Positions 14,102-52,283 of a stretch of DNA of 64,000 nucleotides are shown here, piece after piece. Origin of the DNA: a virus; IMG/VR virus record IMGVR_UViG_3300042878_002532, positions 1-64,000 of that record, one strand, 5' to 3'. Under the pieces are notes generated by a model that ran no database searches, was not told the origin of the DNA, and saw nothing but the letters and a program-made list of their open reading frames with translations. The number at the start of each line of letters is the position of its first letter. The stretch's first letter is position 1. The translations under genes were made by a program, and so were the position numbers.

Positions 14102-15763
14102 GTGGCATATAAAGAAATACCTAAACCAAATTGTACAGTTTATGTACCTACTTTTGCTGATCAATATACTACTGATGTTAGTGTATTAGTTCTTTTCCCG
14201 GGAATACCGGTTGGTGGTAAAACTGGTAAGACTTATTTTCCACCTATGATAAAGGCTGGTGCTCCTACATGGTTTGATAAATATGTAATTGTTATTCCAA
14301 ATGAGCATACCACAAAATGGGATTCTGTTAAAAAAGAATATGGTGAGGCAATGGCTAGTGTTCCACAAGGAACGGGTAAAGATCCAAAGTACGTATTGGT
14401 TGAAAAAACCGTAAGTATTGGAGTTTTTTCGGGTAGTGGAAATGGAACCGCTAATATTCAATCAAAGCTTGTCTCTATAAAGCCAACACATTTGATAATA
14501 ATGGACCCTTCTGCTTCTGGTCCACTCACTCAAAACGTTAAGACATTAGTTAATAAAGGAACATCTTGTTATCTTATGTATAATCCTACTAACTGGGATA
14601 GTTTTCCCGCACTTAAAAATGGATTTCCTTCTTTAGTTGCGGCTGTTGATACTGGTGTGAATAAATCTCAAAAAGTCAAGTTGGGACATACTTCAATTCC
14701 ACCACAAACTCTTAAAACATTTGCACCGGATATTGAAAAAAAGTTGATTACACCCACACAGAAACCTGAAGAACAACCACCAGTTGTAGAGGAAAAAAAA
14801 ACTGATGAGCAGGTAGCCGCAGAGGCCAACCAAGATGCCGCGGGTAAAACACAATCTACTTCACCAAAATGGAATATAACCATAGATGGTTTAGGAGATT
14901 CTGCGGTTGGTGCTGCCCCGGTTGCATATGAAATTAGTGCTAAAAAAGATCTTCCTGGCTTCACTATATACGTTGGAAATCCAGCAACTGATTGGGCTAG
15001 ATTTGGAGAGACGGTTCCTCCTGATGGTGATAACTTTGAAGATGTTGGTGATGATGAAGAGTATACTGAAGGTGGATTCGCGGGAGCCGAAGAGATGGGT
15101 ATAGAATTTGAGGAGATGGAGGCCGCACCTAGTGCGGAAAGAGCGGCAGAGGCTGCATCTGTAGTAGAACAACTTGAGAATTCTGAACCTATTAATGTCG
15201 GTAATCATAAATTAGATTTGATACCAGGTACATTCGTAACAAACGGTGGTACTAAAATACAATGTTGTCAGATTAATGGCTCTGCCGTGAATGTTAAGAT
15301 TGCGGGTGCGTATTTAGATATGGTTGCGGCTGCCAAAAAAGATGGTGTTACAATATCTATAGGATCTGGATTTAGATCACCTTATGATAGTATTAATACA
15401 AAATCTTCTTCTGGTGTAAAAGTAAGTGCTAGTTCACAACAGTCCTTATATGATTCCTATTTAGCAGGAAAAGGTAATGTGGCTGCAAAACCTGGTAACT
15501 CGAATCATGGAAATGGTATTGGATTAGATACAAACGCCGGTGGTAAATCAAAAGGAAGATTTATAAACGTAAATCAGAAAGTTTATACCTGGTTGGTCAA
15601 AAACTCATGGAAGTATGGATTCGTTAGAGCGGTTAAGAACGAAGAATGGCATTTCGACTACCTACCAGACCTTGCTAAAAAAGGACCTTATGGTAAAATC
15701 GCAGGAACTGATGCCAATAAATTTTACTCAGATTGGGGACTTGATAAATTATCAATCACATAA
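14102..15763 (+). CDS. Virion-associated peptidoglycan peptidase: alpha/beta-hydrolase-like N-domain plus M15B (VanY-like) C-domain
   Basis: SGFRS, SNHGNGIGLD (SxH..D), EEWHFDY (ExxH); GVFSGSG nucleophile-elbow-like motif in the N-domain. Confidence 0.8.
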   Translation: MAYKEIPKPNCTVYVPTFADQYTTDVSVLVLFPGIPVGGKTGKTYFPPMIKAGAPTWFDKYVIVIPNEHTTKWDSVKKEYGEAMASVPQGTGKDPKYVLVEKTVSIGVFSGSGNGTANIQSKLVSIKPTHLIIMDPSASGPLTQNVKTLVNKGTSCYLMYNPTNWDSFPALKNGFPSLVAAVDTGVNKSQKVKLGHTSIPPQTLKTFAPDIEKKLITPTQKPEEQPPVVEEKKTDEQVAAEANQDAAGKTQSTSPKWNITIDGLGDSAVGAAPVAYEISAKKDLPGFTIYVGNPATDWARFGETVPPDGDNFEDVGDDEEYTEGGFAGAEEMGIEFEEMEAAPSAERAAEAASVVEQLENSEPINVGNHKLDLIPGTFVTNGGTKIQCCQINGSAVNVKIAGAYLDMVAAAKKDGVTISIGSGFRSPYDSINTKSSSGVKVSASSQQSLYDSYLAGKGNVAAKPGNSNHGNGIGLDTNAGGKSKGRFINVNQKVYTWLVKNSWKYGFVRAVKNEEWHFDYLPDLAKKGPYGKIAGTDANKFYSDWGLDKLSIT

Positions 15764-15793
15764 AAAAATCCTGTTCTAAGTAACAGGATTTTT
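15764..15793. terminator. Bidirectional intrinsic terminator
   Basis: AAAAATCCTGTT-CTAAGT-AACAGGATTTTT between convergent genes. Confidence 0.75.
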
Positions 15794-17374
15794 AGTTATT
15801 GCGGTATCTGAAAGTGTTGTTCCGGCTGCTATGGTAGTCATATCTGGCTTAATTATAATAAGAACAACTCTTCTGTTTTTTTGTTTATTTTCTGCATTTT
15901 TGTTATCTGTGAGTGGTTTTGTTTCTCCCAATCCTTCGGTTGTTATCATTCCTTCTGCAACTCCTTTATCTACTAAATACTTCTTCGTAGATGCTGCTCT
16001 TCTATTTGATAGAGATAAATTACTTTCATTTGATCCATCAGAATCGGTATGTCCTTCAACCTTAAGCTTCCAAGATGTTTCTTTTTTAAGAAGTTCTGCC
16101 AACTTATTCAAGCTTTCAAAACTTTCTGGTCTTATATCAGATTTGTTTGTGTCAAAGTTTAGATTTCTAAATGCAGTTATTACTACTTCTTCTACCTCGG
16201 CAGGTGGAGTAGATGGTGTTCCTGCTATTTTTTCCTCAACCGCAGGTGGTGGAGTAGATGCAGTTCCAGGATCTGGAACAGCTTTGTTAGTCTGAACACT
16301 TTTCGCCGCTTCATCCCAGTCATCTCTTGTAGATAATGTATATGTCAATTTGTTACCATACTTATCTTTATGTACCTCACATAGTTTAAAAAAATCATTA
16401 AGGTCATCTGCTGTAGAAAAAACTTGTGAACCATCTTCTGACCAGTTTCCAACTTTTTTACCTCCTGGATATCCTAAATGTATTTTTATACCAAAATCAC
16501 CGTTTCCATCATCGTTTACTTTTTGTGGTGATGTTAGATTACTTGGAAGAAACTCTGGTCTATCATATTCTTTATCCAACCAAACCATTTGTTTAGAATC
16601 TTTAGTAGTCAATAAAGCAGGTGCTCCACCATATTTTGATATTTTATAAACATCGATATATTGTGAAGGAACTAATATTCTTATTCCTTTAAGTTTATTG
16701 TCTTCTATTGGTGCAACTGCTGGTTTTGTATCGGTTTTAGGTGCGACTACTTCTGGTGTTGATGCAGTTCCTTCTGGTGTTTTATCTTTTGAGTTTTTTA
16801 TCAAAGCATAAGCTCCTGCACCTACTAATGCGGCACCTCCGGCAACTGCGGCAACTGCCAATGCTTTATCTTTATCAAAATTAAATGTAAATCCGGCAGG
16901 AGATCCTGGTGTACTAGCAGTGCCGGCCGCGGTGGCTGACGTAACTGCTACGGCTGTTGCGTTTTTTTCTGGTGTGGTAACTGCCGCAGTCTCGGGCGTC
17001 GTTGTGGTTGTAGTAGTTGTAGCCACTTCTTTAGGTGGATCTAAACTAAAATCAATGTTCAGTCCATACTTTACTGCAAACTCATCTGTTATTATAGCGA
17101 CCATTTCGGTTGCTAATACCTTTGGTGGTGAGAACATCGATGCTTCACCATTCTTTATTATTGTTCCATTGTTGTCAGGAACGACTAAGTTGGTCTGTGG
17201 ATTAGTGAACGGAACTGGAATTCCAGTAACCTCACCTACGGCAGTCCTTTCGGTCATTCCGCTGGCTGCAATTGTTTCGTTTATGGTTATCTTCCCGGAT
17301 AGGTTCTTCTCAAAATTGTTCTGAGTACTACCGTAAAACATCGGATTCGTTATGTATAACTTATATTCTATCAT
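15776..17374 (-). CDS. Tail-associated protein: shared N-module, hydrophobic helix, C-half of an L,D-transpeptidase-like domain, OmpA-C peptidoglycan-binding domain
   Basis: NFDTNKSDI..VEGHTDSDG..LSNRRA..GLGETKP..KNRRV; GIKIH..NWSEDGSQVF aligns with ORF 49195..49791. Confidence 0.8.
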   Translation of the reverse strand: MIEYKLYITNPMFYGSTQNNFEKNLSGKITINETIAASGMTERTAVGEVTGIPVPFTNPQTNLVVPDNNGTIIKNGEASMFSPPKVLATEMVAIITDEFAVKYGLNIDFSLDPPKEVATTTTTTTTPETAAVTTPEKNATAVAVTSATAAGTASTPGSPAGFTFNFDKDKALAVAAVAGGAALVGAGAYALIKNSKDKTPEGTASTPEVVAPKTDTKPAVAPIEDNKLKGIRILVPSQYIDVYKISKYGGAPALLTTKDSKQMVWLDKEYDRPEFLPSNLTSPQKVNDDGNGDFGIKIHLGYPGGKKVGNWSEDGSQVFSTADDLNDFFKLCEVHKDKYGNKLTYTLSTRDDWDEAAKSVQTNKAVPDPGTASTPPPAVEEKIAGTPSTPPAEVEEVVITAFRNLNFDTNKSDIRPESFESLNKLAELLKKETSWKLKVEGHTDSDGSNESNLSLSNRRAASTKKYLVDKGVAEGMITTEGLGETKPLTDNKNAENKQKNRRVVLIIIKPDMTTIAAGTTLSDTAITKNPVT

Positions 17375-17384
17375 CTTTTATCTT

Positions 17385-19103
17385 TTATTTCTGGAATATT
17401 ATCCATTTTGCTACTATATTTTCTCCCGATTCTTTAGTGAAAGTAGCACCGTTGCCAGATGTTGTATCAACTTTCATATTCTTCAATTTTTCCATCAATG
17501 CAATTTGGGCGGCACTATAAGTTTTCCCTGTCACTGTTATATTAGAGTCTAATAAGGTTTTACCACTAACACTACCTGTTGATGTATATCCGTCTTTTTC
17601 AAGCTTATCTTGAGTTGTCGGTGTTATCGTGGGTGGTGTTAAATCTTCTGATGTTCCACTTGTTCCTGATGTTCCACTTGTTCCTGAAGTCCCACTTGTT
17701 CCCGAAGTTCCACTTGTTCCAGATGTTCCTGACGTTCCTGAAGTTCCACTTGCTGTAGCACCCGCGCTCGCAGGATTGTCCTCGTCAGTAGCAGTGTTAG
17801 ATATAGGACCTTTCATAAAGTCTTTCAAAGTTATCTTAGTACCAATCTTTTCTTCCCAATACTTTCTTTCTTTTCTTTTAAAATCTTTGTCTTTTATCCA
17901 TCCTTTTGTTATCTCAAATTCAACACCGGGCATTGTAGAGAATACATATTGTTTCAACTGCCATACATCTTTGTCGTCTTTATAGAAAGCATAAAGTTTG
18001 TCTACAAATTCGTCAGTGTATTTGTCACCAGACTTCAGACCTTGGTTTCTTATTGAAACTATGTTTAGTTCATATGGTTTTGTGAATACTTTGTAGTTCT
18101 TTATTCTTAACATCTCTAAAAGAACGTCTATATCTGGATTATGTGCTGGTTTCTCCGGTGCTAAATCCATAGGTGCTGATGCTGTTGGTGCATCGACCGG
18201 TGGTTTTTCAAATGTTTGTGTAGTAGGTCCTTCAACAGGAACAAACTTCACCGGCTCTTTGGTTGTTAGTTTGTTTTCATCAACAGTGGATGCCCATGTA
18301 TCTCCTTTTTGTCCTTCTGTTACTGAACCTTTGGCTGCACCACCATCTGTTCTTTCTTGTGTTGCTATACTATCGTTGTCTACGATATAGACGTTCTTAG
18401 ACAATATCTTAGGATCTTTCAATGAAAAGTATAGCTGTACTTGTGCCATTAGTGCAGGAGTCGCCACAACAGGTGAAAGAAGGTTTCCTAAGAAAGGTCC
18501 ACCTTTAGAACCCATAAGTATATTTAGAAACTCATCAAACCAGTTTACAAAATTGTCTCCTAAGATTGCTCTTTGTGTAGAGTTTGGAGATCCTATGTTT
18601 ATCTTTCCAAAGTTGTCTTTTAGGTTTACGTTTATACAGGCTTCTCTTATGTTTATATTGTTGAACTTATGGTCTATTTTCAATCCTTCAGAATCGTTTA
18701 CGTATATCTGAGTTTTGTGGTCGTACAATAGTGCTTTCATTGAAAGATAGTCAGGCTCTGATAGTTGTTCCAACTTTTTTTCTAAGTTCACGTTGTAGTG
18801 ATCAGAAGATATGTATTCCGGTGTGTTTTTGTTTCCATCTTCGAATACTACGGTAACTACTTTACCTTTTTCTGGAAGATTAAAGTTGTTTCCGTTTACG
18901 TCTTTCCAAGGAGTTGCCCATGGAAGATCCTCTACCGATATTTCATATTTGTCGTCTTTACTTTTCTCGTCAAATACGTCAAGAACTCTTATCTTACATC
19001 TTCCTAGTTTTTTAGGGTCGTTGTTGTCTTCGACGGTGCCGATATATGTTTTGTTGGCACTTGCGCCATCCATCTTGTTCTTTACGAAATCTTTTGCACT
19101 CAT
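17385..19103 (-). CDS. gp5/VgrG-like baseplate spike (OB-fold) with N-half of an L,D-transpeptidase-like domain and GTS repeats
   Basis: YIGTVEDNNDPKKLGRCKIRV..LPWA..LPEKGKVV.V.FEDG...P; TAATATATA at 19108(-). Confidence 0.85.
   Translation of the reverse strand: MSAKDFVKNKMDGASANKTYIGTVEDNNDPKKLGRCKIRVLDVFDEKSKDDKYEISVEDLPWATPWKDVNGNNFNLPEKGKVVTVVFEDGNKNTPEYISSDHYNVNLEKKLEQLSEPDYLSMKALLYDHKTQIYVNDSEGLKIDHKFNNINIREACINVNLKDNFGKINIGSPNSTQRAILGDNFVNWFDEFLNILMGSKGGPFLGNLLSPVVATPALMAQVQLYFSLKDPKILSKNVYIVDNDSIATQERTDGGAAKGSVTEGQKGDTWASTVDENKLTTKEPVKFVPVEGPTTQTFEKPPVDAPTASAPMDLAPEKPAHNPDIDVLLEMLRIKNYKVFTKPYELNIVSIRNQGLKSGDKYTDEFVDKLYAFYKDDKDVWQLKQYVFSTMPGVEFEITKGWIKDKDFKRKERKYWEEKIGTKITLKDFMKGPISNTATDEDNPASAGATASGTSGTSGTSGTSGTSGTSGTSGTSGTSGTSGTSEDLTPPTITPTTQDKLEKDGYTSTGSVSGKTLLDSNITVTGKTYSAAQIALMEKLKNMKVDTTSGNGATFTKESGENIVAKWIIFQK
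17649..17747 (-). repeat. (Gly-Thr-Ser)x11 coding repeat
   Basis: 9-nt period with synonymous variation. Confidence 0.95.
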
Positions 19104-19185
19104 AGATTATATATTAATTAATCTAATCTCAACAGAGAGTAAATCAATTATATCTAATATTTTATCAGATTATAACAAAATGTTG

Positions 19186-22100
19186 TTATTTACCGAACTT
19201 TTTATTATTTACAGGGAAACTCCATTTAGTTCCAGATTGAACTATTTGTGTAAGTGTACTATTACCTTGTGTAAGTGGTGCTGGATACTTCTGAGGTGCT
19301 TTAGGAAACTGAACCATATTTAAATTAGTACTACCATATTTATTACCGGTCTTTGTATTTGAATCAAGTATCTGTTTTAAAGTTCCATTACCCATATTTG
19401 TAGGAGTTGGATATTTTTGCCCGCCTGCGGGAAACTGAAGTCCACTCATAGATCCAGGAACACTTACCCATTTACTACTTGTTAGTAAATCTTTAAGTTT
19501 TTGATTACCCGAAGAAACCGGTGCAGGATATTTCTGACCACCTGCAGGAAACTGAACCATATTTACATCGCTAGTCCCATAGTTACTTATTTTAGAGTTT
19601 CCAGTTACTATTTGATCAAGCGTCTTATTGCCTTGTGTAAGTGGTGCCGGATATTTTTGTCCAGCATCCGGAAACTGAATACTTCCCATTGGGAAACTCC
19701 AAACCGTTTTAGAAGAAACAAGGTTTGCCAATGTTTTAACAACTTGTGTAAGTGGTGCCGGATATTTCTGTGCACCTGCCGGAAACTGTATCTTGTCATA
19801 GTCTTTTGTACCAACCGGAAATTTGTTGTTCAATGGATTTGAATATCCGTCTATCATTGTTGCTGGTTTGTTGCTACCATCAGTATAGATTGTTCCTTTA
19901 GGTTTCATGAATGAAAATCCTTTAACTCCGATACCACCACCAAACTTAACTTGTCCCATAGTTACGAATTTGAAAGTAGTGTTTGAGTTGAATAGTTTAT
20001 TTACTGATGTTCCTGCCCATTTTGTACTATGTTTACTAGAATCAAAGAATGGCATCTTAGGTCCTTTACTCTGCATTGCTGCGATAAGTTTAGCTTCGGC
20101 ATCATATACTGAGAACTTACTAGTTAGTTTATCTAATGTCGCACCTATGTTAGGCATTTTAAATGGTACGTTTAGTTGAGTTCCTGGTAATAGTGACTGC
20201 ATCGCACCACCCATTACAGCAGCTACGTCTTCTCCAACAAAATTAAATAGGTCGTTTCTTACGTCAAAGAATATTCCGAAACTATGTGGTGTGTATGGTC
20301 TAGGATATACTCTCTTAGGTTCGTTTTTCATACCACCCAATCCTAATAAATTTCTTGCCTTGTTTATAGTGTTTTCCAATAATTTGGCTCTTATGCTTAT
20401 TTGGTTATTTACTTCATTGAATACAAATTTCGCAGCACCCTTTGCTAAATTGACTGCAGACTTTTTAGCATTTTCTTTAAATTGATCAAGTGCTTGTTTT
20501 GTCTTTTTCTTTCTATCTTCTTTCTTAGAATCTTTTGATTCTTCGTCTTCTCCAACTGAATCACCTGGTTTTTGAGGTGCTTTTGGTATAGTAGAAGGAG
20601 TTTCATCTCCTGATGTACCTGTAACTATCTTAGCTTCTTCACCATCCGATTCTGCACTTACTTTGAATGCGTCCATTATGATGGCTTTAGTTACTCCATT
20701 TCCTCTCATAGTGTTTGTTCCTACCGTGTAGAATTTAGGAACAGAAGTATCAACAGTTACGAATCCGCCTACGTTTCTAGCACTTCTCATTCCTTTGTTT
20801 CCTATCTTCCATATAGCACCATTGTTATATCCTACATATTGTCCGAACTTCTCTGTATCTGGTATCCACTTTTCGAGTTTCATATGTGCATATTTATAAT
20901 CGAAAGTAACTTCAAATGCAGCGTTTCCATCACCATACATTTTAATAGTACCCATGTCGATAGAATCTTCATGTGGCATGGTATTGAAGTAGAACTGACA
21001 TTCTCTAAGAGAGTATATGTATCTAGACACATTGTCTTTTATTATCTCTAAATCTCCTGTTTTTGTTGCTTTTCTAACTCTATTGAAGTTTCTACATTCA
21101 GAAACTATTATATCACAATTGAATCTTAGAAGATTTTCAGGAATAAGTCCTTTACCATTTGGTTTTGACCAATAAAGTAGTTTGTATAGATGTGCTAATG
21201 TACCCATTGTTGCAGATACGTCTTCTAAGAATGTAAGCTTTATTACATCTTTACCATAATCTGTTAAGTATTTTTTAGTTTCTGCACTATTGGACTCTAT
21301 TAGTTTAGAAAGACCATCAATTTTTTGCAAATAGTATGACATATAAGCCTTTTTACCTGGTCTGTATAGGTTTGTTTGTGTCTCTGCTCCAGCATATGCT
21401 GATAGTAGACCATCAACACTGGATGCTAGTGCTTGACCATCACGTTGTTTGTTTATAAGAACGTCGTCTCCTTTGTATGTTTTTTGATTAACTGATCCTT
21501 TCGTTCTGAATATTTTTGAAAATTGTCTTTTGAAATCATCCAATACTATGGCTCTTGATGCAATCTCACTCACGTATGAAAATTCTGATATGAAGTCCTC
21601 TACCGATCCGTTCAATAGTGGTGAACTGAACGCGTCGATTACTATCTCAACTCCGTACATTACAGGATCGTTGTTTTCATATGGTGTATTTTTAAAAGAA
21701 GCCAATCTAAAAGAGTCTCCAGATCCATTCCATGATTCTCTTGCACCAGTTCCTGATTTTAGATTTGTATATCCATCGATGTGAAGACCATGTCTAAAGT
21801 AGTCTGTTCCTTGGTCATTGAATCTAAGATAGTAGTCTCTTGCTGAATATGCTTCAGATTCTACTTTGTCTCTTGTTGTTTCTTCAAGTTTTTGTTTTGT
21901 ATCGGTACTTACAAAGTTTTTGGCAAACTGTGTGTAATAATCACTTTCAAGATGTGAATTCATAAGATGTCCTATCCATGCGTTTCCATCATTCCAACTA
22001 TATTCATTTATTTTACCTTTTCCTAATTTAGTATCTAATATTTGCTTACTTAAAAATGAAGGAGGTAAAAATCCTGGTTCGTATCTTTTAGTTCCTTTTA

Positions 22101-22365: not shown

Positions 22366-23790
22366 CTATGTATAAGAAGATGGATTTTTCTCAAGTACTG
22401 ACCAATAGTAAGTAAATTTTTCTTTTCTATCTGCTAGACCATTGTCACCACCATTAACCCATCTTGATATTTTGGTAACGATATCCATACCTGCTCCTTC
22501 GTTTGCCTTTTTAGGGAAGTTTTTAACACCTTTTGGACCAGCAACACTCCAGAACCAAACAGAACAATCTGCTGCAAATTTTCCTTCTAGTAACTCAGGA
22601 TTTGCCACAACATCGTCTTTTATTCCTTTAGATTTTAAGTAAGTGTTGTATGATGTGTAGTTTGCTCTTCCTGTTATTTGTATATAACCTCTTCCTTTGT
22701 ATCTAACACCATCTCCTGTTTGTGTATTTCCTAAATCTTTTCTACCTTCATATGCCTTACCAGATGCAAACTCTCTCTTCCAAGCAAATTGTCCAGATTC
22801 GTGAGCACATTGTGCAAGGAAGTGAGCTCTTTCAAGTGCACTCTTTATACCATAGTCTTTCATTGCTTTAATAACGTCTGCAGGTGGTGATTTGGATGGT
22901 TTTCCAGGTTTGTACTTAACCATCTCTTTAGCTATTTCTGTTTTCTCTTCTGGTGTGATATTTGAATTTGTATCTTGTGATATTTGTTGGATATATGCAT
23001 CAAAAGTTACTTTTAGTTCTTCATCTCCTGCAAAAATTTCTTCTGAGAATTCTTCATCCATCTCTTCCGCTGGTGGTACTTCTAAAGGTTCTTCTTTGAT
23101 TTCACCAACACCTACTATTGTCAATGTTCCTAGTTCGTTGTTTACTCCTATAAACTGATTGTCTTGTTCTATGTTGAAAGTGAATTCTCCTGCTAAACTG
23201 TCACCACTTGTTCCTGAAGTACCACCAGTTCCAGAAGTCCCGCTAGTACCAGAAGTCCCGCTAGTACCAGAAGTACCTGCTGGAGTTTCAGTGGTTGTTT
23301 TAGTAACGTCACCACTAGTTCCTGATGTTCCACTAGTTCCTGATGTTCCTGATGTACCACTTGTACTTGAATCTGTAGAGTCTGGAGTAGAGTCGGAAGC
23401 ATAAAAATCTATTTCTACTCCAAATAGATTTTTATATCTTTCTTTTATCATATCTCTTGCCGCAGTATCCGCTATGTATTCGTAGTAATTGTCTTTAGTT
23501 ACTTCACTTCCCCATCCAGTAGTGTCACTAAAAGATATTTCTATTTTTTTTTCTGTAACCACTGCATTAGTTATAGGATTTGTAAATGGATTTATAAGAC
23601 CTGTGGCTTCTGCACTTGCTTTCCAATATCCATTTCCATCTTTAGTCGAATTTGGAGCACCATCTTTCACTTTGGAAAAATCATATACACGAACTTTTAT
23701 TTTCGCATAATCGGTTCCAGCAGGTATTGAAGTTACCCAGTTTGCATCGGTGGGTGTTTTATATTTTTTTACTGAATAAATATATTCCAT
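22366..23790 (-). CDS. Virion-associated GH19 (chitinase-like) lysozyme with N-terminal modules and GTS repeats
   Basis: HFLAQCAHESG, YEGRKDLGN, YKGRGYIQITGRANY, VNGGDNGLADR. Confidence 0.88.
   Translation of the reverse strand: MEYIYSVKKYKTPTDANWVTSIPAGTDYAKIKVRVYDFSKVKDGAPNSTKDGNGYWKASAEATGLINPFTNPITNAVVTEKKIEISFSDTTGWGSEVTKDNYYEYIADTAARDMIKERYKNLFGVEIDFYASDSTPDSTDSSTSGTSGTSGTSGTSGTSGDVTKTTTETPAGTSGTSGTSGTSGTSGTGGTSGTSGDSLAGEFTFNIEQDNQFIGVNNELGTLTIVGVGEIKEEPLEVPPAEEMDEEFSEEIFAGDEELKVTFDAYIQQISQDTNSNITPEEKTEIAKEMVKYKPGKPSKSPPADVIKAMKDYGIKSALERAHFLAQCAHESGQFAWKREFASGKAYEGRKDLGNTQTGDGVRYKGRGYIQITGRANYTSYNTYLKSKGIKDDVVANPELLEGKFAADCSVWFWSVAGPKGVKNFPKKANEGAGMDIVTKISRWVNGGDNGLADRKEKFTYYWSVLEKNPSSYT
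23203..23364 (-). repeat. Two GTS/TSG tracts
   Basis: TSG repeats flanking DVTKTTTETPA. Confidence 0.9.
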
Positions 23791-48466: not shown

Positions 48467-49195
48467 TTATTTGTAGGCTAAATTTATTGTCTCACCTGCG
48501 TATTTTCCGGTGAGTGCATTTTGGTACTCTACTATTTTATAGCTCACCATCTTCGAACCCTGTTCTGCTAGATTTAACAAATATTGTATTGATTGATTTC
48601 TTTCTTCACCAGGTGTCATATTCTTTATCTCTTCTGCGTTCTGCTGAACAACTTTCATCGCTGAGTTTGCCAAGTCTGTCACTTGTTTTCCAAAGATTGG
48701 ATTGTCTACCGATCCTCCTTTTTTCAATTGAAACAAATATGCTTGTGCTTTCATAAGAAGACCATCATCGTATTTTCCGGATCCTTCGGACTGAAGTCTT
48801 TTCAGGAATCCAATTGCGGCATCCATTACTCCTTCCGGTGGTGTAGCTTGTTTAGTCGCTGCTGCAGAACATAGAACAAAGAATAAAACTATTAGAATAA
48901 GTGTTATGATTATAGTTCTAAATAAGGCAGGGTGCTTTTCTTTGAAACTTTTTATCTTATCCAGTACCTTGTCGAAGAACTTTTTGACGAGACTAAGTGC
49001 CATCAATCCTTTCTCCATCAGTGTCAACATAAGATTTCTTATAGAATCGTTTATCTTTTCAAAGAAGTCTCCTATCTTTTTCATCCAATCCGTAAATCCT
49101 TCGTTTATAGAATCAAAATTACATAACTCATCAAGAGCTGCAAAAGTTCTTTGTTCATTTATCGAAAAGGATTCAAAATTGTTTAGATGTTTCAT
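48467..49195 (-). CDS. CTS-bearing protein with an internal TM helix
   Basis: MKHLNNFESFSINE..SINEG; TM TIIITLILIVLFFVLC. Confidence 0.75.
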   Translation of the reverse strand: MKHLNNFESFSINEQRTFAALDELCNFDSINEGFTDWMKKIGDFFEKINDSIRNLMLTLMEKGLMALSLVKKFFDKVLDKIKSFKEKHPALFRTIIITLILIVLFFVLCSAAATKQATPPEGVMDAAIGFLKRLQSEGSGKYDDGLLMKAQAYLFQLKKGGSVDNPIFGKQVTDLANSAMKVVQQNAEEIKNMTPGEERNQSIQYLLNLAEQGSKMVSYKIVEYQNALTGKYAGETINLAYK

Positions 49196-49791
49196 TATTT
49201 AATATCTTTTGATTCTATTAAAGTATATGTAAATGAGTTACCATGAAGTTTCGCTGCTTTCTTACAGATTTTCATAAACTCATCAAAGTCTTTAACTCTT
49301 TTGAATACTTGACAACCTTCTGACCAGTTTTCAACCCATGTTGAATCTTGTCCAGCTTTATGAATGTTGATACCATATAAACCTTCTGTGATTTTGTTTT
49401 CATCGTAGTTTAAGTCTTTGTTTGCATCTCTGTAAACTTTAACATTTTTAGCTTGACCTAATGCTTCGTATTTACCTTGGTGTAATCTGATTGTATGTGA
49501 ACCTCTATATTGATTTGGTACTAATCTAGCTACTCCGTCTTTGTTATGAAATTCCATAACTCCTTTTTTACCTGGATCTGTTGTTGCTGCCCAAATAAAA
49601 AACTTCCATTCACCATTTTCTTTAAATGATATTGTAAGATTATCATCAAATACATTTGTTACTTTTGTTCCTGTAGATGAGTTTCTTACTCCAACGATAT
49701 TTACATCGTATCCTTTGTTTGCCGCATCGTCGAACCATACATATCCTTTTGATTTAACTGCAGCCTCGATTTGTTCTCTTGTATAAGACAT
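49195..49791 (-). CDS. L,D-transpeptidase/YkuD-like peptidoglycan enzyme (putative lysin)
   Basis: GINIH...NWSEGCQV (His/Cys pattern HxnSxGC). Confidence 0.65.
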   Translation of the reverse strand: MSYTREQIEAAVKSKGYVWFDDAANKGYDVNIVGVRNSSTGTKVTNVFDDNLTISFKENGEWKFFIWAATTDPGKKGVMEFHNKDGVARLVPNQYRGSHTIRLHQGKYEALGQAKNVKVYRDANKDLNYDENKITEGLYGINIHKAGQDSTWVENWSEGCQVFKRVKDFDEFMKICKKAAKLHGNSFTYTLIESKDIK

Positions 49792-50179: not shown

Positions 50180-51340
50180 TTATTTTAGAATGTTTACTAC
50201 TTCTGGGTAGTATTTGCATATATTTTGATTCTTTCCTTCATAAGGAATGGCTGAAAGTGCGTATCTCATAGCATTTAATCTTCCAATCTTTTTGTCGTTT
50301 GAGTTTATTATAACCCAAGGTGTAGTCCTACTTGATGTAAGGTTGAACATCTGATTTTTGTAGTGTCCGATTATCTCCCATTTATCAACAACTTTGGCGT
50401 CATTCGGTGAGAACTTCCAGTATTTCAAAGGACTTTGTTGTCTTAAATCGAATCTTTTTAGTTGTTTTTCTTTGGTAATAGAGAACCAGAACTTAATAAG
50501 GTGAAGACCTTGTTTCTTTATCATTTTCTCTTCCCAATCTACCACTTTTTCCATGAAGTCTTTGTACTGATCTTCTGTACAATAACCCATTGCTGGTTCT
50601 ACTACTGCTCTGTTGTACCAAGATCTATCAAAGAATACTATTTCTCCTTCTTTAGGCATGTGTGCCTCATATCTAGCGAACCAGTTTTCTTTCTCTTCTG
50701 GAGTTGGAAGTCCTAAAGCAACTACTCTGAATCCTTTTGGATTTAAGTATTCGACGAATCTTTTTATTGTAGAACCTTTTCCTGCAGAGTCTCGTCCTTC
50801 GAATACTATAGCTATTCTCTTACCGTTCTTCAGAACCCATTCTTGAAGTTTCATAAGCTCTACTTGTATCTGATATTTCTCTGATTCGTATTCTTTTCTA
50901 GTAAGTATAGATCTCTCACCTTCGAACTCATCAAAGTGTTGAGCCTGAGCACCAGTTTTAATAACTGATATCCTGTTATCTATAGATTTGGCGAAGTCAT
51001 CAAACTGTTTTCTTATGTTACTTTTGGTATCTCTTCTTTTGAGTTCCATAAGTTGATTTATCTTCCTAAGAAGTGTGTCGATGTTTAAGTCTTGTACGAC
51101 CTCTGGAGTGAACTCGTTGTTAAGTTCTCTCATTATTATATCTACTTCGATTTTTTCAAAGGATTTGTATTCTACTTTGTTTGTTTGAAAGTTGTAGACA
51201 ATATTGTCCAATATAGAACTTTTATACTCTCCAAGTCTTGTCAGTATGTTCCTTTTTATCTGTTCGATATTTTCGGGATCCATCTTGTCAATCCTAAGCT
51301 CTTCTTTTATAAAATCCAAGAATTTACGTAAATTCTTCAT
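50180..51340 (-). CDS. ppk2: Polyphosphate kinase 2 with N-terminal CTS-bearing extension
   Basis: FEGRDSAGKG, FDRSWYNR, PLKYWKFSPND; start MKNLRKFLDFIKEE after TAATATATA at 51361(-). Confidence 0.93.
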   Translation of the reverse strand: MKNLRKFLDFIKEELRIDKMDPENIEQIKRNILTRLGEYKSSILDNIVYNFQTNKVEYKSFEKIEVDIIMRELNNEFTPEVVQDLNIDTLLRKINQLMELKRRDTKSNIRKQFDDFAKSIDNRISVIKTGAQAQHFDEFEGERSILTRKEYESEKYQIQVELMKLQEWVLKNGKRIAIVFEGRDSAGKGSTIKRFVEYLNPKGFRVVALGLPTPEEKENWFARYEAHMPKEGEIVFFDRSWYNRAVVEPAMGYCTEDQYKDFMEKVVDWEEKMIKKQGLHLIKFWFSITKEKQLKRFDLRQQSPLKYWKFSPNDAKVVDKWEIIGHYKNQMFNLTSSRTTPWVIINSNDKKIGRLNAMRYALSAIPYEGKNQNICKYYPEVVNILK

Positions 51341-51380
51341 ATATTTAGAATATTTTCTTTTATATATTAAAAGTGAAAAG

Positions 51381-52283
51381 CTAAAGTTTTTTCTCAAATA
51401 GATAAAGGTCGTATAAAGTATTTCCTTTTACGTTCTTTATACTTTTAAGAACTTGTCCGGTAACAGAATCAAGCACTTTGAATACTCCTATTTGTTGATT
51501 TTTATCAGTCTGAATTTTCACAGTATTTCCTGGTTGACCCAAAGCCCCTAATACTGCAACATATTTGTTTCCATATACACTTTTTAAAAACGATACTCTT
51601 AAAGTATTTGTATCTTTAATGTTGTTTATATAAGCGTTATCCATTACTTTTGTTAAATCTAACTGACTTTCAGTTTCTTTTACTACTATGGTCGCGAATT
51701 TTCTTTCTTCACCACCTAAAGTAATTTCTTCTCTGTTCTGAATTTTGTTTTGGTTTACAAGGTTTTGTTGGTTTCTTCTAATCTCACTAAAATCTGCTTT
51801 AGCTATTATACCACCTCTCATACCTTTATCATTCATATTATAACCTGCAGGGGCTAATCTGTAGAACGATCCAGTAAAAGTCATAGAAAGTATTCTATCT
51901 GTTCTAAAAAGTCTCCAGATCTTGTTTATGTGTCTTTTCTGAGACACCGACCATCCGTTTAGATGCCAACCTCTCAATAAAGTTTTGCCTTTTGAAGACC
52001 TCCCAATCACCATTGGGTATATAACTCGCTCATGGCCAGCAAAATGCGTATCTTCTTCTCCTTTGTAGTTGAGTAGGAAGATCATTCCGTATTTGATTGC
52101 CTTTATCATAGTCTGCTCGTTGTACTTGATAGGTTCGTTGATAGGTATATTGGCGATGTCTTTTACATTCTTCAATGAAAATCTAGGTATGAACTCATTG
52201 TCCTCTATAAGTTCGTATCGTTCTTTAACGACGAATTCTACAGGCTTTGTATTGTAATATGCTTTTGTTTGCGCTAGGTTCAT
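51381..52283 (-). CDS. WYL-domain-containing protein
   Basis: LNYKG..ERVIYPMVIG..LLRGWH..WRLFRTDRILS. Confidence 0.7.
   Translation of the reverse strand: MNLAQTKAYYNTKPVEFVVKERYELIEDNEFIPRFSLKNVKDIANIPINEPIKYNEQTMIKAIKYGMIFLLNYKGEEDTHFAGHERVIYPMVIGRSSKGKTLLRGWHLNGWSVSQKRHINKIWRLFRTDRILSMTFTGSFYRLAPAGYNMNDKGMRGGIIAKADFSEIRRNQQNLVNQNKIQNREEITLGGEERKFATIVVKETESQLDLTKVMDNAYINNIKDTNTLRVSFLKSVYGNKYVAVLGALGQPGNTVKIQTDKNQQIGVFKVLDSVTGQVLKSIKNVKGNTLYDLYLFEKKL

Follow-up and report, generated by a model that had tools for sequence, protein, structure and literature searches.

The gene pair in the window

The window analysed here is a stretch of 64,000 nucleotides (nt) from the IMG/VR virus record IMGVR_UViG_3300042878_002532 (positions 1 to 64,000), a 113-kb record for which CheckV estimates a completeness of 17%. 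Its relatives are uncultured huge phages of 630–735 kb. On the minus strand, the window carries a gene for a gp5-like tail spike (P0002, 572 amino acids (aa), 17385..19103), followed by a gene for a protein of 532 aa (P0003, 15776..17374), referred to below as the partner. An earlier note on this DNA, made from the sequence alone, had claimed that an L,D-transpeptidase-like domain is split between these two adjoining genes, with its N-terminal half (N-half) in the spike and its C-terminal half (C-half) in the partner, about 1.24 kb apart, in different frames and separated by a stop and a new start. The open reading frames (ORFs) and the quoted peptides agree with this description. The two halves lie 1,235 nt apart, and this gap holds the stop codon, a spacer and the new start. 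At the gene boundary (17375..17387, minus strand), the TAA stop of the spike gene and a 10-nt A-rich spacer precede the ATG of the partner. P0002 and P0003 are read in different frames, their starts being 1,729 nt apart (3n+1), and a TAA in P0003's own frame stands 6 nt upstream of its ATG.

P0002 has the hallmarks of a gp5-like baseplate central spike, that is, a baseplate neighbourhood and an N-terminal OB domain that exceeds the Pfam cutoff (PF04717, E 1.5e-5, 25.7 bits versus 23.8). It matches phrog_430 (baseplate hub/tail lysozyme) with an E of 1.2e-17, and its locus is syntenic with the spike loci of relatives. The N-half (residues 323–393, 17925..18137) has kept the residues that do not vary within the family (N, R, F, D, T and G). 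It is followed by a lineage-specific insert of ~39–45 aa (residues 394–432, 17808..17924) that fused relatives possess as well and directly after which the break occurs. The spike tail contains a collagen-like (GTS)n repeat (17648..17752, 18-nt period according to Tandem Repeats Finder) and ends in a mobile C-terminal module, here called the tail module (residues 484–572, 17388..17654).

The partner starts with a module termed EY (residues 1–115, 17030..17374; pLDDT (predicted local distance difference test) of 82–90 in an AlphaFold2 (AF2) model), for which a protein atlas search returned no usable match. Then follows a Gly/Ala-rich hydrophobic segment (residues 172–193, 16796..16861) that resembles a transmembrane (TM) segment and would insert into a membrane, as judged from its sequence; G185 and L191 in this segment are nearly invariant. 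The C-half (residues 227–352, 16319..16696) retains the catalytic His and has Ser in place of the nucleophilic Cys. An OmpA-like peptidoglycan-binding domain follows (residues 407–501, 15872..16156), which PF00691 detects with an E of 1.5e-23 and 83.4 bits, well over the gathering score of 27.2.

Identity of the fold

The window also encodes an intact, free-standing member of the same family, P0001 (198 aa, 49195..49791, minus strand), with an H...SxGC motif. Pairwise alignment, which the earlier note had proposed and for which BLASTP was used, matches both halves with this protein significantly: residues 26–74 of P0001 match residues 342–393 of P0002 (35% identity, E 9e-5) and residues 86–191 match residues 230–347 of P0003 (34% identity, E 3e-11). 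P0001 had been described as the intact paralogue of the split domain. It is indeed homologous over both halves, but it is distant (28–35% identity) and not the parent of the split copy.

Pfam yielded no family for P0001 at E ≤ 1 and none that covers either half in P0002 or P0003, the PF03734 model being unmatched; a search of PDB sequences with the family profile gave no real match. PHROG matches of P0001 were limited to phrog_3000 (unknown function) and phrog_33083 (endolysin). The family is very large (2,655 clusters at 50% identity). In an alignment of 80 members, N31, R36, D50, Q113, C160 and L191 are invariant, and H104, H144, S157 and G159 nearly so. P0001 thus possesses the catalytic motif (H144, S157, G159, C160).

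The AF2 model of P0001 (pLDDT 97.3) finds YkuD-fold chains exclusively among its structural matches, with Z-scores of 9.4 to 6.0. The closest are Pgp2 (Z 9.4 over 126 residues, root mean square deviation 3.8), Bd1075 (9.1) and Csd6 (9.0), followed by L,D-transpeptidases (7–8.8), DpaA (7.7) and Tlde1a (6.0–6.2), an effector of a type VI secretion system (T6SS). These Z-scores stem from VIA-align; Foldseek alone was weak (best E 4e-3), its top matches all being YkuD-fold proteins. The structural alignments cover P0001 residues 19–196, i.e. both halves, and N-half and C-half hence belong to one fold and are not two separable domains. On the basis of the predicted structure, the designation as L,D-transpeptidase-like holds.

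The P0001 gene overlaps by 1 nt with an ORF of 242 aa (48467..49195, minus strand) that contains a hydrophobic segment (LILIVLFFVLCSAAA). The two genes may make up a lysis cassette in which the YkuD-fold protein, which has the Cys, would be the endolysin; this would fit the match to phrog_33083.

Fused counterparts and the site of the break

The real unsplit counterparts of the split pair are the fused spikes of relatives, not P0001. The spikes of LR756502 and LR745206 hold the whole domain in one polypeptide, and fused spikes occur in the loci L001, L002 and L006–L009. Those of the closer relatives L006–L009 comprise 698–827 aa and have an extra ~45 aa between the halves. Residues 5–404 of the fused spike P0124 match residues 16–429 of P0002 (57% identity, E 1e-175), and its residues 420–555 match residues 230–365 of P0003 (58% identity, E 1e-48). 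The break therefore maps to a single, poorly conserved loop (residues 405–419 of the fused protein). As judged from these sequence matches, the homology of the two halves to one domain is beyond chance.

The 61 loci that were retrieved comprise 31 split and 23 fused ones, along with seven that are too short to judge; relatives thus include both fused and identically split versions, and the arrangement is not a peculiarity of this assembly, as the earlier note had cautioned it might be. Wherever the flank permits, the N-half is encoded upstream of the C-half on the same strand, 771–2,122 nt away, and the two genes are adjoining and co-oriented in all 31 split loci. L005 shows the same two-gene layout as the window at 62–78% identity. 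The simplest form is found in L045–L047, where a 423-aa spike ends after the insert and is followed, after an A-rich spacer of 14 nt, by a 141-aa ORF that consists of the C-half alone. Database searches returned ~62 spike clusters that have the N-half and the insert without a C-half, as well as 120 partner clusters with a C-half and no N-half; a scan of viral contigs with P0515 found nothing. The split is thus seen in a clade whose members are huge phages from lakes and the sea.

The split might be only apparent if a frameshift, stop readthrough, an intron or an intein restored a single polypeptide. In L005, L012, L048 and L051, the two genes do share a frame with a single stop between them, as such recoding would have it, but the window and the majority of split loci have the genes in different frames. 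Moreover, the partner's ATG is closely preceded by an in-frame stop in both the window and L047, and the junctions read in the window, L005, L011 and L047 have no slippery site in common. The intervening 0.8–2.1 kb are made up of conserved protein modules with their own start (EY, tail) and are not intron- or intein-like. Frames, stops and coding content of the junctions thus speak against an intein, an intron or a programmed frameshift, with the spacer left out of any RNA family search, and restoration of one polypeptide by recoding or splicing is very improbable.

Selection and integrity of the assembly

Both halves are as conserved as the spike's OB domain. Between the window and L005, the proportion of non-synonymous differences (pN) amounts to 0.076 for the N-half and 0.087 for the C-half, level with the OB domain (0.086), as compared to 0.20–0.48 for the linkers. 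Many columns are invariant in both halves (54 spikes; 67 sequences for the C-half). This conservation indicates that both are under strong purifying selection; decay, which the earlier note had named as a possible outcome, affects neither.

The two genes could also result from faulty assembly or from a recent gene breakage that will end in loss, given that the window derives from a metagenome contig and that contigs from short reads are interrupted at the GTS repeat. Eighteen lake-water metagenome runs, some of which may be the source sample, contain 98% or more of the words sampled from the stretch. In three runs, contigs with zero mismatches span 15700–17677 and 17681–19200 and thereby cover the gene boundary and both halves, the breaks being confined to the GTS repeat (17648..17752). 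The same architecture recurs in 31 loci from many samples and in the ~62 spike and 120 partner clusters, and the halves are on a par with the OB domain in pN. Artefact or decay is hence of negligible probability.

Within the GTS repeat, the contigs of all four runs break or show joints that go back or skip. Such a pattern points to a repeat number that varies within the population or to cross-mapping with the similar repeat of P0128 (see below). In addition, the RNA run X19 holds contigs of a relative that is ~95% identical over parts of both genes, which is no proof of transcription.

Loss of the catalytic residues

The replacement of the putative catalytic Cys by Ser in the split copy, already seen in the earlier note, is evident from WSEGCQVF in P0001 versus WSEDGSQVF in P0003. 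The split copy accordingly lacks the catalytic His...Ser/Thr-x-Gly-Cys motif with its Cys nucleophile. Across split partners, the nucleophile position is occupied by Ser, Glu or Asp, varying from partner to partner. All insert-bearing spike copies, whether fused or split, are devoid of C160, H104 and Q113, and R121 is mostly gone; N31, R36, D50, Q94, Y95, D122, H144, S157 and G159 are kept. Of the outgroup spikes, LR756502 has the Cys and the His motif, LR745206 neither Cys nor H144. This distribution indicates that loss of the nucleophile preceded the split. The split domain is therefore probably a pseudoenzyme that serves as a docking clasp and not as an enzyme, and its status as a pseudoenzyme is the most likely one from sequence comparison. 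Once rebuilt, the domain would probably act as a scaffold or as a binder of peptidoglycan stems. The alternative proposal of an assembly-dependent peptidoglycan binder is compatible with the missing nucleophile.

Predicted refolding of the two halves

The complex of P0002 residues 318–436 and P0003 residues 222–356 was predicted from author-made alignments in three runs along with three controls. The interaction prediction score from aligned errors (ipSAE) reached 0.88, 0.87 and 0.88, versus 0.00 for the best of the three controls. At the same ipSAE mark, 58 of 80 solved complexes and two of 110 mismatched pairs are called, counts that are rough given the author-made alignments. The predicted complexes comprise 166–173 contacts, on which the runs agree in at least 82%, with a partner pLDDT of at least 83 (83–85 for the C-half). 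Strand 344–352 of the spike is predicted to pair with residues 343–349 of the partner. With unrelated partners, the pLDDT drops to 56–57 for the N-half and to 43 for the C-half. When the whole P0003 is modelled alone with AF2, the C-half has a pLDDT of 35–72, and the EY and OmpA domains reach 80–90. The halves are thus predicted to co-fold, as the earlier note had anticipated. Its notion of a split-domain clasp that tethers the partner to the spike has withstood every computational test proposed for it, with binding as a prediction.

We consider it probable (roughly 0.65) that a single YkuD-fold domain, located at the C-terminal end of a gp5-like tail spike, has undergone a gene fission that became fixed in evolution, and that its halves refold together. 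In ancestral spikes, the whole domain was part of one polypeptide. In the present clade, one surface loop behind the ~45-aa insert has received a stop and a new start with a short A-rich spacer between them, and the spike retains the N-terminal strands while the next gene encodes the remainder. The two halves would then refold non-covalently into one β-sandwich by fold complementation, and the features expected of such a pair are found, namely single-domain origin with fused orthologues, retention under selection and co-inheritance. Refolding would dock the downstream protein on the spike, with three copies per spike trimer, and thereby bring along whatever cargo is fused to it, here the EY module, the TM-like segment and the OmpA-like peptidoglycan-binding domain. 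After the split, the gene boundary could have become a permissive site for the addition of modules on either side.

Several points weigh against this explanation. Physical association of the halves is so far a matter of prediction. Complex predictors are apt to rate halves of a known fold highly; the high score may in part reflect the model's knowledge of the whole fold and would then speak for compatibility, not for association in the virion. The role of P0003 as a virion protein is putative. Furthermore, dS is saturated between the window and L005, which makes dN/dS unreliable and leaves pN alone as informative. Finally, the order of modules differs, with the C-half before EY in fused spikes and EY before the C-half in P0003, so that a simple insertion does not suffice to explain the history.

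Alternatively, the halves may no longer meet and may have sub-functionalised independently, the N-half with the insert becoming a structural part of the spike and the C-half forming, with the OmpA-like domain, a peptidoglycan-binding unit in a separate membrane or periplasmic protein. The partner's own peptidoglycan-binding OmpA domain and its TM-like segment, an architecture of the MotB or Pal type, would suit such a protein, and the loss of the nucleophile removes any catalytic need for reassembly. However, half a β-sandwich is unlikely to fold alone, and the predicted confidence for either half alone is low. The strict adjacency in all 31 split loci, the maintenance in L045–L047 of an ORF of 141 aa that has the C-half and no other domain, the retention in the N-half of residues that are invariant across the whole-domain family, and the interconversion of fused and split forms within the clade likewise disfavour separate fates. 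Independent sub-functionalisation is accordingly rather unlikely.

Evolutionary series and exchange of modules

A tree was built from the first 300 spike residues, leaving out the columns of the trait itself. It places the fused spikes with insert as sister to the clade that holds the split forms and requires at least 2–3 changes between the fused and the split state. The fused spike P0335 nests among split spikes, with 90–93% identity over residues 1–409; its residues 414–774 share 77% identity with residues 224–593 of the partner protein P0512. By sequence, P0335 could be either a re-fusion or a retained fused form.

What lies between the halves depends on the lineage. In the window, it is the tail module followed by the EY module and the TM-like segment, in L011 it is repeat arrays on both sides of the boundary, and in L012 other sequences. 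The cargo at the C-terminus of the partner varies as well and can be OmpA, OmpA with LysM, the tail module, some other domain or nothing at all. In fused spikes, the C-terminal module is a homologue of the EY module of P0003 (hhalign probability 85.6%, E 5.5e-6, 84 columns), so that P0002 and P0003 between them contain everything a fused spike has, together with additional modules. EY may have come to precede the C-half by tandem duplication followed by reciprocal loss, or by insertion of a module at the boundary.

No remnant of the lost C-half was detected in the spike tail (residues 433–572), neither by hhalign against the family profile nor by BLASTP against a fused spike. Nor does the tail match the C-terminus of the 1,270-aa baseplate protein encoded upstream, and the idea that it was copied from there was dropped. 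In the partner homologue P0349 (507 aa, from a 23,071-bp contig of NCBI), the OmpA domain is replaced by an 89-aa tail module that is 53% identical to the spike tail module of the window. Sequence identity of this degree indicates that the tail module has moved between spike and partner genes.

In L011 (5001..8619, P0327/P0507), leucine-rich repeats of the same kind (..LSKLKSLGxD..) occur in the spike tail and in the head of the partner, as if the boundary had cut one array or the two arrays paired.

A further protein of the window, P0128 (474 aa, 22366..23790, minus strand), combines an EY-like N-terminal module with (GTS)n collagen-like repeats of the type seen in the spike tail. Its FTFNI motif recalls FTFNF in P0003, and its C-terminal part is lysozyme-like and appears, by its sequence, to be of the GH19 type. 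As a candidate relative of P0003, P0128, with its EY-like module and GH19-like domain, was rejected, the match being restricted to 21 residues (E 0.001).

Relation to known systems

The closest parallel in overall design is gp5 of phage T4. As in gp5, an OB domain of the gp5 type (PF04717, phrog_430) is followed on the same spike by a domain directed at the cell wall, within a baseplate cluster. In T4, gp5 undergoes cleavage while the spike assembles, and the resulting parts remain together in it. In the present case, the domain has a YkuD fold instead of a lysozyme fold and is without a nucleophile, and the cut is made at the gene level inside the fold and not by cleavage between domains after folding.

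Proteins that are naturally split and reassemble are known from split inteins and from T4-like and jumbo phages, in which genes for polymerase, topoisomerase and RNA polymerase are split. Gene fission and retention of both parts are shared with the present pair, as would be, by analogy, non-covalent reassembly. In contrast, the cut described here falls inside a small β-sandwich of a structural virion protein in which catalysis had already been lost, and the boundary has gathered variable cargo modules.

P0003 resembles OmpA-, MotB- and Pal-type proteins in ending with a PF00691 domain downstream of a TM-like segment. Unlike these, it is the product of a gene in a phage baseplate cluster and contains one half of a spike domain along with the phage-specific EY module, and its OmpA domain is replaceable in relatives by OmpA with LysM, the tail module, another domain or nothing.

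With the YkuD-fold enzymes (L,D-transpeptidases, the L,D-carboxypeptidases Csd6, Pgp2 and Bd1075, DpaA and Tlde1), the domain shares the predicted fold (Z 9.4–6.0) and, in P0001, an H-x15-S-x-G-C motif. In Tlde1, the domain is likewise tied to the spike of a contractile injection machine (PMC9638812). The phage domain differs in having no sequence match to PF03734 or the PDB, in being encoded by two genes, and in the loss of C160, H104, Q113 and mostly R121 from the insert-bearing spike copies.

Wall-directed domains on spikes, injection spikes with YkuD-fold effectors and split genes in phages have each been known before. A literature search for a YkuD domain on a phage spike or for a split phage domain found no description, which is not proof of absence. 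In the literature searched, the new element is a YkuD-fold pseudoenzyme whose fold is interrupted internally and shared out over the spike gene and the one after it, with a boundary that has collected varying cargo. More tentatively, and with somewhat less than even odds, the split pseudoenzyme may function as a two-piece docking device in which modules can be added on either side of the boundary with attachment preserved, fission and re-fusion recur at the same loop, and the spike cargo is exchangeable in a manner reminiscent of T6SS effectors.

Should the halves bind, they would constitute a compact natural fragment-complementation pair of ~110 and 130 residues that has been used repeatedly to attach cargo to an injection spike. 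Such binding would account for the way in which the working tip of the tail is diversified among huge phages, and it would provide a documented series from the whole domain via the fused form with insert and the minimal split to the split with cargo, and possibly back to a re-fused form. In protein engineering, the halves could conceivably serve as a new non-covalent tag pair. Given the putative virion role, the system would moreover be a case of a YkuD-fold enzyme that became a structural pseudoenzyme on a virion.

Neighbouring genes

Convergent on P0003 lies a gene (14102..15763, plus strand) whose C-terminal motifs SGFRSP..., NHGNGIGLD and EEWHFDY resemble those of VanY/M15-type peptidases. 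The same motif set ends the syntenic genes L002:7827..9440 and L012:9047..11239. In L005, L011 and L047, the syntenic counterpart has a different, Cys-containing C-terminal domain. Further away, a 405-aa ORF (50180..51397, minus strand) appears to be polyphosphate kinase 2-like in its C-terminal two thirds.

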